In this document: in pieces, positions 31,221-61,092 of the stretch | Numbering within the stretch: the first letter of the stretch is position 1 | Layout of the letters: each line of letters begins with the position of its first letter | IMG/VR virus record: IMGVR_UViG_3300032288_004022 | Location: 31,572 to 95,571 of that record | Length of the DNA stretch: 64,000 nucleotides | Source of the DNA: a virus | Direction: 5' to 3' (one strand) | Made by a program: the position numbers and the translations under genes | The notes under the pieces: model-generated | The model's database searches: none | Told to the model about the DNA's origin: nothing | What the model saw: only the letters and a program-made list of their open reading frames with translations

Positions 31221-32134
31221 GCAGCTACACCTTTGATCACAACAAAGTTGAACACAGGTGCGTCAGATGCTGTGCCGCTCACAGAAGAAAATGTGATTCT
31301 AAAACTTCCATCTGCTACAGCAGTCACAAATGTCAGGTACGTGTTGGTACCTGATTTTTGATTCACAATCACAGTGTCAGTGGCAGCAACCAAGGTGTTG
31401 GTCACAGTAAAACTGGTGTATGCCGAAGTACCAGCAGCAGTGAACAAGGTAATAGCACCTGAACGTTTGCTGAGTGTGACTCCTGTGGTGCGACTGGTAC
31501 CTTGAGTTACTGTACCACCAGCACCGGCAGCGTAACCAACAGCAGTTCCTGCATCAGCCAACAACGGACGATTGAGATCATAAATGGTGATTGTGGTGCC
31601 ACCGTCTACACTGCTGAAACCAAATCTAAACGTTCCTGTGACGCCAAAGGTCAGTACATTGCTGCTCAAACCTTGTACGCCGGCAGTGCCCAGGCTCACT
31701 GCCGCAGGCAATGTCACGGTGTAGGCAGTGTTGGTAACAACAAAGTCAACGTATAGCATGCCAGCAGAACCTGTGGCCGGCCAGTTTGAAAAGCTCAAGC
31801 TCACATTGGCAGTTGGCGCAATCAACTGATACTGTGCAGCACTGTAGTCCACTGTGATCGACCCCGCAGTGGTGGTTTGTTGTAGATATGTGCAACTTAC
31901 ATCATTTAATTTAACGGCGTATATTAAGTTATCCGCCATGTTGTTGTCCAGTGTGGTACCTGTAAGCGCAGCCTTGAAAACGCCTTTGTTTTCCAAGTCA
32001 GTGATTTCCGTAGCAGCAATTTGAAAGTTGGTTTTGGTGTTTGTAAAATTGTCTCTAAAACCTTGGGTGTTGTTCTGTTGGCCAGCCACGGGATATGTGC
32101 CGTCTATGTTGTTGGGGTTGATTTGACTTGTCAT
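31217..32134 (-). CDS. Probable virion structural/fibre protein
   Basis: YPVAGQ.N.TQGFRDNF N-terminus, T/S/G-rich; minus-strand TAAATA at 32155-32160. Confidence 0.6.
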   Translation of the reverse strand: MTSQINPNNIDGTYPVAGQQNNTQGFRDNFTNTKTNFQIAATEITDLENKGVFKAALTGTTLDNNMADNLIYAVKLNDVSCTYLQQTTTAGSITVDYSAAQYQLIAPTANVSLSFSNWPATGSAGMLYVDFVVTNTAYTVTLPAAVSLGTAGVQGLSSNVLTFGVTGTFRFGFSSVDGGTTITIYDLNRPLLADAGTAVGYAAGAGGTVTQGTSRTTGVTLSKRSGAITLFTAAGTSAYTSFTVTNTLVAATDTVIVNQKSGTNTYLTFVTAVADGSFRITFSSVSGTASDAPVFNFVVIKGVAA

Positions 32135-58180: not shown

Positions 58181-59088
58181 TGTCCAAAATTGAAGAACAG
58201 GAAAAACTGTTACAAGCACTCAAATTCACTCCGCGCACCTACAAGATTCAACTGTGGGGCTATGGTGGCGAGCATGTAATGGGCACAGTGGATCGCAAGA
58301 TATATGATTACTTCCGTGGTCGCAGACTCAGTGTGCCAGACTATGCCTGGGGAGGGTATGATGGGGAAGTGCCCGAAGACATGCAACCATTCTATCCTGG
58401 AGCGTGGCACGACTGCGATGACATGGGGCATGCATGGGGCGTGGATGTCAATGCTGGACATCTGCAGATTCTGGACGAAAATGAAAACATTGTTTATGAG
58501 CGTGAACTGTCGGATCTTGACGGTTGCGATGTGCAACTCAGCACCATAGAAGAAGTTTGGATTGATCAAAAAGAACCTGGCACTGTGGTGTTCTACGGAT
58601 ACACCTCTGACAAGGGCTCATTCTTTGAAGCAGACATTGAACTTCGACAACCGTTTGACCCTGAAAAACTACTGATAAAAATTTCAGATTTTGACAGCAA
58701 CGAGATTGTTGTGGGTGCAGAATACGACGGCGAAGAGCTGGACAATTATGGTGGCGACACCAACGGCAAAAGTTCTGAGTATGCGTTCTACGTTGCAGGG
58801 TCAAACCAAGGCAAGGGCTACGAACGCTATCGCGACATGGATGACATCCAGTATGGACTGACTGACTGGTTCCCGGCCAAAATTGATCCGGTAAGGCCGG
58901 GCAAATACAATGTTCACACTCAAGATGGACATGAGTATCAGGCCAGTTGGAATGGCACGTTTTGGTACAACGAATGGAACGATAAAGAGTCCTTGAAAAT
59001 TAAAAAATGGCAGGGTGTGGCCTATGATCCTGACGAACAAGATCTTCGCGAAGATTTAGACAAAATCATTTTAGAATTTAACAGTTAA
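58177..59088 (+). CDS. Acidic hypothetical protein
   Basis: GAGG RBS; GYGGE, KGSFF motifs. Confidence 0.75.
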   Translation: MMSKIEEQEKLLQALKFTPRTYKIQLWGYGGEHVMGTVDRKIYDYFRGRRLSVPDYAWGGYDGEVPEDMQPFYPGAWHDCDDMGHAWGVDVNAGHLQILDENENIVYERELSDLDGCDVQLSTIEEVWIDQKEPGTVVFYGYTSDKGSFFEADIELRQPFDPEKLLIKISDFDSNEIVVGAEYDGEELDNYGGDTNGKSSEYAFYVAGSNQGKGYERYRDMDDIQYGLTDWFPAKIDPVRPGKYNVHTQDGHEYQASWNGTFWYNEWNDKESLKIKKWQGVAYDPDEQDLREDLDKIILEFNS

Positions 59089-59091
59089 TTC

Positions 59092-59120
59092 TTGACATCG
59101 CGCCGCGATCCATGTATAAT
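59092..59120 (+). promoter_or_regulatory. Perfect sigma70 consensus promoter
   Basis: TTGACA-17-TATAAT. Confidence 0.85.
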
Positions 59121-59125
59121 TACTG

Positions 59126-59401
59126 TGTGCATGGACAAAGAGATTGGGCTGTTCAATGGCCAGGTAGGGTGATTCGATAACCTAGGCCTACCAGGCACCG
59201 TGGCATGTGAACAGAAGTCCCGTAGGTTGCGACAAAGACCTCGGTCTGGCAACAGACCAAAACCCAGGCTGGAACCCCGGGGGTATGCCAAGAGGAAAAA
59301 ATCTAGTAAGGTTGTGTATATGACTGTTAACATCGAGGCCTCTACGTCGAGTATGCCGACATCAATTGACTCGCTTAAAGAAACGCCTTTGCCCATGCAC
59401 A
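59126..59401 (+). ncRNA. Candidate ~275-nt structured RNA (unassigned class)
   Basis: 14/15-bp closing helix starting at the predicted TSS; nested helices; GCAA tetraloop hairpin. Confidence 0.6.
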
Positions 59402-59637
59402 AATTATTTTTTGAACTGTCTACCATCAGTCAATGGTATGCTATCATGCGAGAAGCACGAGCACAGTTTGGCAAAAATTGGCGCAGTCAAAGTCATGTCA
59501 AACGCAGACTTGACCGTATACTGTATAAAGATAACCTGGCCACAGAGCGTGTTTGGTTTGAGGTGCCAGATCCCAAATTTGGTACCTGGGTCGCCATTAA
59601 ACATGCTGTTAGACAGGTAGCGGCCACTAATAAATAA
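59320..59637 (+). CDS. Hypothetical protein (start uncertain: 59320 or 59395)
   Basis: Protein-like C-terminal part WYAIMREAR..FGKNWR..VWFEVPD. Confidence 0.6.
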   Translation: MTVNIEASTSSMPTSIDSLKETPLPMHKLFFELSTISQWYAIMREARAQFGKNWRSQSHVKRRLDRILYKDNLATERVWFEVPDPKFGTWVAIKHAVRQVAATNK

Positions 59638-59643
59638 ATTTCT

Positions 59644-61092
59644 ATGATATTTGGTTTTGCTATTTTGGCCACTGCTCTTTTATTGAGCGCGGTGGCTGCC
59701 TATTACTCTGTGGCTGGCCTGGTTGCTATATTTTCTGCGGCAACTATTCCTGTGATCATCATGGGTGGCTCATTGGAACTGGGCAAGATTGCAGCCACTG
59801 TGTGGTTGCACAACAATTGGCGCCGTGCAGGGTGGGCCTTCAAAGTGTATCTTGTGCCAGCAGTGGCATTTTTAATGCTGTTGACCAGCATGGGTATATT
59901 TGGATACCTATCAAAAGCACACAGTGATCAAAGCTTAGTAAGTGGAGATGTTGTTAGCAAAATTGCAATCTATGATGAAAAGATCAAGACCGAAAAAGAA
60001 AACATTGAAGCAAACCGTAAGGCACTTAAACAGATGGATGAAGGAGTGGACTCGGTACTGGGCCGCTCAACAGATGAAAAAGGTGCCGACAAAGCAGTGG
60101 CTCTGCGTCGCGCCCAGCAGAAAGAACGTGCTAGACTTCAAGCTGAAATATCACAGTCGCAAAAGTCTATTGCGGAACTTAACGATGCCCGTGCGCCTAT
60201 TGCCGCCGAAGTACGCAAAGTTGAAGCCGAAGTTGGTCCCATAAAATACATTGCGGCCCTGCTGTACGGGGACAACCCTGATGACAATCTACTAGAACGT
60301 GCAGTGCGTTGGATGATCATAATGATTGTGTTGGTGTTTGATCCCCTGGCCTTGACATTGATTCTGGCCGCCAACAAACAGTTTGAGTGGGCACGTCAAG
60401 GCACCGGTGGATTTATTCACGATGAGTCTGTGCCCAAGTACGAGCCCGATGATGGCCCACTAACCAAACAACAACTTGAAACCCTGCGCGAGGTCGCAAA
60501 GACAGAGCCTCCAACGCAGGAACCACCCCCACATAGTTCTGACACACATCCTTATTTGACACAGGGTTTTCAATATCCGCCGGGTTGGATGTTTCATCCA
60601 CCCATGGTGGCCAAATCTGACGAAGTGACACCATGGGAAGACCATGAAGAAATAGGATCTGAAAACCAGGAACTCAAAGCAGCCATCAAGCAATGGAAGG
60701 CTGACAACCCTGATGACACAATAAAAAATCAACGATCCAAATTTATACGAGGTGAAATTAACGAATTGCCTTGGATGCGTCTGGTAGCTGACAATGCCAA
60801 ACCAGAAAACCGCACTGGTTTTGGCACAAGTTTTCCAGAAACCGCCAACAAAGGCGATTCGTTTGTGCGAGTAGACATTGTGCCCAATGTTGTGTACAAA
60901 TTCAATGGGACAAACTGGATTGCGGTTGACAAAAACCTCAGCGACAGTTACACTTATGATTCAGCGTATATCGAACACCTGGTGAACAAAATAAGCACAG
61001 GCGAATATGATCCCGAATTGTTGAGCAACAGCGAACGTCAACAGTTAGAAAATTATCTACAAACCAACAAGGCAAACAATGAAATCAAATGA
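59644..61092 (+). CDS. Membrane protein with a coiled-coil domain
   Basis: 3 N-terminal TM segments, GIFGYLSKAH, coiled coil, EVGPIKY, TM with FDPLA; TAAATA upstream. Confidence 0.75.
   Translation: MIFGFAILATALLLSAVAAYYSVAGLVAIFSAATIPVIIMGGSLELGKIAATVWLHNNWRRAGWAFKVYLVPAVAFLMLLTSMGIFGYLSKAHSDQSLVSGDVVSKIAIYDEKIKTEKENIEANRKALKQMDEGVDSVLGRSTDEKGADKAVALRRAQQKERARLQAEISQSQKSIAELNDARAPIAAEVRKVEAEVGPIKYIAALLYGDNPDDNLLERAVRWMIIMIVLVFDPLALTLILAANKQFEWARQGTGGFIHDESVPKYEPDDGPLTKQQLETLREVAKTEPPTQEPPPHSSDTHPYLTQGFQYPPGWMFHPPMVAKSDEVTPWEDHEEIGSENQELKAAIKQWKADNPDDTIKNQRSKFIRGEINELPWMRLVADNAKPENRTGFGTSFPETANKGDSFVRVDIVPNVVYKFNGTNWIAVDKNLSDSYTYDSAYIEHLVNKISTGEYDPELLSNSERQQLENYLQTNKANNEIK

Follow-up and report, generated by a model that had tools for sequence, protein, structure and literature searches.

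A structured RNA family at the 5' end of an early mRNA of uncultivated jumbo phages encloses the start of a small gene

The window analysed here is a 64,000-nt stretch of viral DNA, positions 31,572 to 95,571 of IMG/VR virus record IMGVR_UViG_3300032288_004022. The record is 95.6 kb long with an estimated completeness of 27%, and its near-complete relatives have genomes of 320-364 kb, indicating that the source is an uncultivated jumbo phage; the phages that carry the RNA described below are giant and uncultivated, and come from lake water and freshwater. Genes for a Bax1-I-like membrane protein and for ClpX lie near the RNA. Two features of the locus are a promoter and a small ORF that overlaps the RNA.

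59092-59120, + strand: sigma70-type promoter TTGACA-17-TATAAT (-35 at 59092-97, -10 at 59115-20), scoring 12/12, hexamers conserved
59320-59637, + strand: ORF of 105 aa, with the ATG present in 68/68 relatives and the frame open in 67

The stop codon of the 105-aa ORF is followed by TAATAAATAAAT, 7 nt and then the ATG (59644) of a 482-aa gene (window 59628-59646). The product of this second gene (59644-61092) falls in no Pfam family, and residues 29-245 of it have conserved counterparts, at 26-42% identity, in many cultured phages of large or jumbo size, with matches in Pelagibacter phage Mosig, XacN1, Xoo-sp13, RsoM2USA, SCTP-2 and Flavobacterium phage immuto. Among GenBank phages there is neither a DNA match to the RNA region nor a homologue of the 105-aa protein, and ARAGORN finds no tRNA or tmRNA in the window.

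A perfect sigma70 promoter was part of the original prediction, and it is well supported: TTGACA-17-TATAAT is the sole 12/12 match between 56000 and 64000, and 54 of 75 distinct relatives also score 12/12 in their upstream regions. Both hexamers are conserved among relatives and the spacer is not; conserved blocks then run to about 59401. Some divergent members have an extended -10 (TGnTAAAAT), or the terminator of the upstream gene just 5' of the promoter. In all 75 distinct relatives the distance from the end of the -10 hexamer to the first G of the closing helix P1 is 6 or 8 nt, indicating that the RNA starts at the foot of that helix, with a predicted transcript start at about 59126-59128.

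Loci for comparison were gathered from IMG/VR using the 105-aa ORF and its 482-aa neighbour, dozens with each, and DNA identity across 59115-59400 is 67-94% in nearly all of them. RNAalifold applied to a MAFFT alignment of 68 main-clade sequences (A1) gives 41 pairs, 27 of them with compensatory changes, and a fuller A1 structure has 66 pairs in 13 helices, with 93.8% paired and 43 pairs changed on both sides; when the partners are slid by 1-3 columns as a control, 29-43% are paired and 8-18 pairs are changed. A covariance model (R1) built from the 66-pair structure scores 278 bits on the window RNA and recovers 81 members, including nine divergent ones outside the seed (37-120 bits). The alignment of these 81 R1 members (A2), relatives from uncultivated jumbo phages, supports 58 nested pairs that are 94.2% paired, with compensatory changes at 47, as against 28-44% paired and 16-22 compensatory pairs in the slid controls. 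The A2 covariation score is 0.458 compared with no more than 0.10 in the controls. None of 500 shuffles equals the observed pairing values, a count that overstates independence, as the sequences share kinship. The nine divergent non-seed members retain the helices with new pair types. G-U cells far outnumber A-C cells (402 versus 53), which shows that the + strand, the strand read from the promoter, is what folds. The single-sequence fold energy is unremarkable (z of -1.5 and -0.75); a single sequence therefore proves nothing here, and the support is comparative rather than thermodynamic. The minimum-energy fold nonetheless recovers most of the stems originally proposed, and the central proposal of a conserved multibranched RNA, of about 270 nt, is upheld. 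Its parts are as follows.

59129-59398, + strand: whole structured RNA, closing helix P1 and all that it encloses (R1 score; A2 covariation)
59129-40 with 59387-98, + strand: closing helix P1, 12 bp, compensatory changes
59147-59220, + strand: domain 1, a long irregular hairpin, from comparative pairing
59147-49/59217-20 and 59151-55/59208-12, + strand: domain 1 helices P2a and P2b
59156-59/59198-201, + strand: base of P3 in domain 1, AUGG with CCGU
59160-62/59192-95 and 59165-68/59187-90, + strand: domain 1 helices P3a and P3b
59169-59186, + strand: apical 18-nt loop of domain 1, GUGAUUCGAUAACCUAGG, enriched in palindromes
59202-59205 with 59286-89, + strand: candidate pseudoknot GGCA with UGCC (GC 49, GU 25, AU 3), tentative
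59229-59232 with 59371-74, + strand: long-range helix Pa, GCGA with UCGC inside the ORF, 99.7% paired
59243-59258, + strand: P5 hairpin GGUCU(G)-GCAA-(C)AGACC, 5/5 pairs compensatory
59262-59282, + strand: P6 hairpin with conserved loop CUGGAA, CUGGUA or CUGAUA, 84% paired, 5/7 compensatory
59283-59325, + strand: conserved joining strand with near-invariant main-clade motifs (GUAUGCC, GUAAGG, ATG 59320)
59326-59374, + strand: 3' domain inside the ORF (Pb 99% paired, Pd 95%), comprising Pb GUUAA 59326-30/UUGAC 59366-70, Pc 59332-33/59361-62 and Pd AGGC 59336-39/GCCG 59355-58, followed by the 3' strand of Pa

The terminal pairing was first proposed as 59126-59140 with 59387-59401, and its core at 59129-40/59387-98 is the part that stands, with compensatory changes; its near-invariant end GCAUG/CAUGC becomes GCAGU/ACUGC in a divergent clade. 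The domain 1 helices, the P3 base apart, are 93-99% paired with most pairs compensatory, P3a being looser at 76%. Three of the stems predicted from the window, CTGTTCA/TGAACAG (P2b), GGTAGG/CCTACC (P3b) and the GNRA-capped hairpin GGTCTG-GCAA-CAGACC (P5), are confirmed by compensatory changes. A proposed GCCA/TGGC stem gives way to AUGG/CCGU, in which a change of G to A is matched by one of C to U, while AGGT/ACCT is compatible with the alignment (85% paired) but does no better than shuffles. The same is true of the suggested TGGCAT/ATGCCA pseudoknot, of which GGCA/UGCC is compatible and 96% paired but again no better than shuffles; its 3' strand is the GUAUGCC motif of the joining strand. The second pair of Pa is AU in 38, CG in 34 and UA in six members of A2. 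The tetraloop of P5 is GCAA, GAAA or UUCG in relatives, and the divergent clade has insertions of 20-25 nt in P5 and of about 40 nt in P6.

The 3' part of the fold overlaps the ORF. The GUAAGG motif appears as GUGAAAGGA in relatives and contains an SD-like AAGG at 59308-11; across the 68 main-clade sequences the ATG at 59320 is invariant and GAAAGG nearly so, with an SD-like AAAGG and then the ATG in 68/68. In the divergent clade GUGAAAGGA persists as GUGAAAGCA, which is no SD there. Read from 59320, 67 of the 68 main-clade sequences stay open for 102-107 aa; in the remaining one (L038, 1263-1538 and downstream) the small ORF passes the usual stop into a long tail, likely through a frameshift or assembly error. 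About the first 26 codons of the ORF contain helices Pb, Pc and Pd together with the 3' strands of Pa and P1; P1, which pairs the first transcribed bases with codons 23-27, reaches 78 nt into the ORF. The ratio of diversity at third codon positions to that at positions 1 and 2 is 1.11 in codons 2-26, which thus show no relaxation at the third position, versus 1.62 in codons 28-105. Covariation in the ORF helices alters encoded residues, for example where GCC/AUG becomes GGC/AUC, as do the Pd variants GGC/GCC, GGG/CCC, AAC/GUU and GAC/GUC; over the first 26 codons the constraints on the RNA prevail over those on the protein. Two further pairings were considered and rejected: that of the loop motif CCYRGG with P6 strands in the same molecule, which lacks consistent complementarity, and sequestration of the SD by the CU-rich 3' strand of P1, which varies (CUUUG, CCCUC, CCCCC) while the SD-like motif stays AAAGG.

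The region had been described as one of the largest gene-free stretches in the window, with an RNA whose 3' strand covers an in-frame start codon at 59395. The first part holds for 59121-59319, which has no conserved frame, but a conserved ORF runs from 59320 inside the RNA. The ATG at 59395 is not the start: divergent clades have CTG there, and all 68 main-clade sequences have an open frame from 59320. In the divergent clades and in a clade with a minimal P3 the upstream frame is closed, and the start is the AUG equivalent to 59353, which overlaps the 3' strand of Pd. Public gene calls (clusters P0002, P0006, P0019 and others) give lengths of about 105, 96 and 81 aa, from which it appears that gene callers pick among the equivalents of the in-frame ATGs at 59320, 59353 and 59395. 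The region is not simply coding: across 59126-59394 no reading frame is open in most of 69 distinct relatives, and this segment is 260 to 279 nt long, with length differences that do not follow a step of three. A 113-aa minus-strand ORF (59085-59426) was rejected as accidental, each minus frame being stop-free in at most nine of the 69; it spans exactly the RNA, and a gene caller could mis-annotate it.

The 105-aa protein has a conserved basic motif, WR.Q..VKRRL, and a predicted RRM-like alpha/beta sandwich topology. An AlphaFold2 model from a 45-sequence alignment has a pLDDT of 80; residues 1-18 fall below 50 and are predicted to be disordered, and a ferredoxin-like alpha/beta domain is confidently predicted from about residue 26, just past P1. 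Foldseek/VIA comparisons with the PDB give generic ferredoxin-like matches only (E at least 0.07, Z no more than 7) and no specific RNA-binding family. Pfam and PHROG searches assign no function to the small ORF, all of its homologues being 'hypothetical', and Protein Atlas returns only unnamed clusters, below 0.9.

The source record and five relatives of 220-364 kb each carry a single copy of the RNA. A fixed-spacing pattern taken from its 3' region matches at least 119 IMG/VR contigs, and all 42 of the new pattern-matched contigs screened with R1 are real; an earlier, looser DNA pattern had given just two real loci among 80 listed. GTDB species genomes yield five pattern matches, of which R1 supports one (L274:3609-3894, 269.7 bits), on a 39-kb contig binned in a Haliscomenobacter sp. 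MAG. The bin has most likely picked up a phage contig here; as a clue to the host, Haliscomenobacter sits poorly with a consensus sigma70 promoter. In all 81 aligned and 43 further members the RNA is joined to the adjacent small ORF. The converse does not hold, as two distant relatives, L062 and L066, encode the same protein with its basic motif after a promoter and short leader, lacking both the RNA and the N-terminal tail, so that the RNA looks like an add-on to the gene, and the tail like a by-product of that addition. In L053 the 5' domain is lost and only an RNA remnant is left. With filters off, R1 picks up this remnant at 13.5 bits and has no other match in L053, L062, L066, L141 and L143-L145. 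At the start of the ORF in L053 (2990-3060) a perfect 8-bp hairpin, GUUGAUUCA-CUU-GAAUCAAC, takes the place of the 3' domain. As far as summaries of earlier notes show, both the RNA-less relatives and the shifted start codon of the divergent clades are new here.

The original prediction did not recognise the RNA as a tRNA, tmRNA, 6S, SRP, RNase P or group I intron RNA, and this agrees with our searches. Rfam 15 (4227 families) gives no match anywhere in the window at gathering thresholds, and with E values up to 10 the interval 58900-59800 gives two chance-level matches, both outside the RNA, at 12 bits where the cut-offs are 36 and 100. There is thus no significant match to tmRNA, 6S, SRP, RNase P, group I or II introns, riboswitches or T-box, nor to HEARO, ROOL, GOLLD, OLE or raiA. 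We conclude that this is a new structured RNA family forming the 5' end of an early phage mRNA. A survey of IMG/VR predicted 10,006 candidate RNAs (Fremin et al. 2023, PMC10690425), and this family, lacking an Rfam 15 model, may be among them.

The apical loop of domain 1 has a property of its own. It is 18 nt long in most members and contains one or two self-complementary hexamers; in the window, CCUAGG (59181-86) is intact and the first element is degenerate, UCGA (59174-77). A perfect palindrome of at least 6 nt is present in 34 of 43 distinct loops (300 shuffles: mean 9.9, maximum 19), and 17 of the 43 have two (shuffle mean 1.2), whereas three other unpaired regions of the RNA show no palindrome enrichment. 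In an out-of-sample test on later-fetched loci, 13 of 14 distinct loops are palindromic (500 shuffles: mean 2.6, maximum 7), new palindromes included. At least 15 distinct hexamers occur, among them AUCGAU, AGAUCU, UUCGAA, GUCGAC, CAAUUG, CUCGAG, UGAUCA, GAGCUC, UAGCUA, CCCGGG, CCUAGG, ACCGGU, ACUAGU and UCCGGA. This switching between palindromes is a new observation, within the scope of the earlier summaries. A 6-nt palindrome is unable to fold on itself. An apical loop with covarying palindromes is the arrangement of kissing-loop homodimers of the OLE L9.3, GOLLD L21a and HIV DIS type, and in OLE and GOLLD loops that switch between palindromes were taken as evidence for intermolecular kissing (Kretsch et al., PMC12286853). 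By the same reasoning a symmetric kissing loop probably links two folded copies of the phage RNA. In a 'minimal P3' clade (L061, L287, L300, L303, L305, L333) P3 is shortened and the palindromic loop is missing, so dimerisation cannot be essential to the core function.

Around the promoter, the structure and its strand, the overlap with the ORF and the palindromic loop, all of which are observed, we propose, with moderate confidence, a new leader that acts in cis, probably dimerises and gates synthesis of a small early protein; gating and dimerisation are what we infer. Host sigma70 RNA polymerase would start at about 59127, and P1 would close a fold of about 270 nt that takes in all of the 5' UTR, the region where ribosomes bind and about the first 26 codons. 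A ribosome on the ORF would have to melt P1, Pa, Pb, Pc and Pd, so that fold and translation would be mutually exclusive, the fold existing only on untranslated transcripts and thus representing a translationally closed state. The protein would then be made only from nascent or remodelled transcripts, with a co-transcriptional time window, a protein or a ligand as possible triggers of opening. The helix at the 5' terminus may in addition make the mRNA more stable, and the hexamers of the apical loop would join two folded copies by a symmetric kissing loop. It is the expected unwinding of these helices by ribosomes, together with the strict linkage to one gene, that favours a cis-acting translation gate, perhaps also a 5'-end stabiliser.

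The ATG at 59320 lies 4 nt before Pb, with +7 to +11 paired, and in the consensus structure the SD-like AAGG and the AUG are in an unpaired strand. A thermodynamic model puts start-site accessibility at about 0.5, the same for nascent and full-length RNA, so that occlusion of the start site by the fold is something we infer rather than read from the model. A 13-helix fold is moreover far more elaborate than known translational operators, which counts against gating.

The interpretation offered originally was of a new ncRNA class (a decoy, scaffold or ribozyme), or of an RNA-plus-protein module in which the RNA gates or partners the adjacent basic protein. The conserved RNA survives from this, but a separate ncRNA upstream of the ORF does not, as the SD-like AAGG, the ATG at 59320 and about 26 codons are inside the fold; the gene does not start at 59395, and nothing points to a ribozyme or decoy. 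As the RNA is always linked to the adjacent gene, gating of the protein by the RNA is the better of those options, and the occurrence of the protein without the RNA in L062 and L066 makes an obligate RNA-protein particle less likely than regulation.

A bolder form of the gating proposal, which we put forward tentatively, is that the transcript toggles between two states: unfolded it would serve as mRNA, and folded it would be a self-pairing RNA that forms symmetric dimers or larger assemblies through its palindromic kissing loops, setting the amount of an early host-takeover protein or acting in trans.

A serious rival to a leader acting in cis is a stand-alone or dual-function self-assembling RNA: the fold of about 270 nt, possibly processed after P1, would be a scaffold, decoy or self-assembling particle that works in trans, and the ORF overlap would merely save space. 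Its 5' and 3' ends pair in a terminal helix from the transcript start, as in stable RNAs; its complexity, stable tetraloops and variable peripheral insertions resemble those of ornate ncRNAs; covariation of the palindromic loop marks RNA-RNA assembly (PMC12286853); and GUGAAAGGA is kept as GUGAAAGCA where no SD role is possible. Yet at more than 120 loci the RNA is never found away from the small ORF, no terminator or conserved 3' end follows P1, where coding goes on in frame, and every main-clade member retains the ATG with its open frame (L038 reading through), which leaves us doubtful that the RNA acts in this way.

Two further readings keep the RNA in cis. It could be a riboswitch, an aptamer for a small molecule reporting host state, with the ligand setting the opening of the start region. 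In size and architecture it fits among the large riboswitches, having junctions of several helices, a candidate pseudoknot and unpaired nucleotides of high conservation, and the start region is held inside a conserved, structured 5'-leader fold extending from the transcript start to codon 27. We nevertheless consider a riboswitch improbable: the RNA is tied to a single gene family that lacks an assigned function and has no association with metabolic-pathway genes, it would be an unusual riboswitch whose closing helix reached 78 nt into the ORF, and no Rfam riboswitch model matches even at E values up to 10. Slightly less probable again is an autoregulatory operator, in which the basic ferredoxin-like protein would bind its own leader and repress or activate translation in the manner of T4 gene 32. 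Strict linkage of RNA and gene, the WR.Q..VKRRL motif and the RRM-like alpha/beta sandwich topology would all suit such a role, but L062 and L066 have the same protein and motif without the RNA, suggesting that the protein's main target is something else, and the structural matches are generic (Z no more than 7) and identify no specific RNA-binding family. That there is no RNA structure here at all, and that the signal reflects coding on either strand, a DNA-level element or chance complementarity, has a negligible probability and is already refuted: in spite of the open 113-aa minus-strand frame across the region in the window and the ordinary single-sequence fold energy, every frame is closed in most relatives, the length differences are not multiples of three, compensatory changes occur at 47/58 pairs, and the excess of G-U over A-C fixes the + strand.

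For a gating leader, the nearest working analogue is the leader of the Levivirus maturation gene. In MS2 the 5' UTR of this gene adopts a multi-arm fold in which a long-distance pairing closes translation, leaving a short co-transcriptional window for protein synthesis (PMC4615214). The jumbo-phage RNA is likewise the 5' end of a phage mRNA with multiple arms and long-range pairing, and its closed state would be comparable. In the Levivirus leader, however, an upstream strand pairs with the SD, whereas here codons 23-27 are the partner of the 5' end and the SD-like motif has no formal partner; the start site is enclosed by P1, Pa and Pb, but the AUG too is unpaired and its accessibility is unchanged between nascent and full-length RNA. 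The MS2 element is also about 130 nt in an RNA-phage genome as against about 270 nt in a DNA jumbo phage, and there is no sequence or model similarity between the two.

Other comparisons are with DNA-phage leaders and with large RNAs. The T4 gene 32 leader and the candidate RNAs upstream of gp32 and gp20 in IMG/VR are structured, pseudoknotted, thought to control translation of their genes in cis and absent from Rfam (PMC10690425). The gene downstream of the jumbo-phage RNA is neither gp32 nor gp20, having no Pfam or PHROG match and a predicted generic ferredoxin-like sandwich, and the fold is much larger and extends into the ORF. OLE, GOLLD and ROOL are also large, covariation-rich RNAs without known function that are often phage-borne, and kissing-loop palindromes in OLE and GOLLD switch, for example among GGCC, GAUC and AGCU (PMC12286853). 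The jumbo-phage loop has the same signature, making it a candidate for oligomerisation on sequence grounds, but the RNA has no Rfam match to these classes, is at most half as large as they are, is joined to an mRNA whose start codon it encloses, and is not near tRNA genes, of which the window has none.

In retroviral genomes, the HIV-1 dimerisation initiation site has an apical 9-nt loop with a 6-nt palindrome flanked by purines, acts in packaging, and uses different palindromes in different lineages. The jumbo-phage RNA shares the apical loop and the lineage-specific palindrome, but its loop is 18 nt long, often has two palindromes and is in a phage mRNA leader.

To our knowledge almost no regulatory RNA has been described from uncultivated freshwater phages with genomes of 320-364 kb, and these phages now have a large RNA family of more than 120 members, with 47 covarying pairs and no Rfam model. 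Its architecture is unusual, a single fold extending from the first transcribed base to codon 27 and enclosing the start codon, and its length of about 270 nt and its stable tetraloops make chemical probing and cryo-EM practicable. The switching palindromes connect mRNA leaders to the newly recognised quaternary structure of natural RNAs, and, if the transcript does toggle between message and self-pairing RNA, it would be the first natural homo-oligomeric RNA to form the beginning of a phage message.
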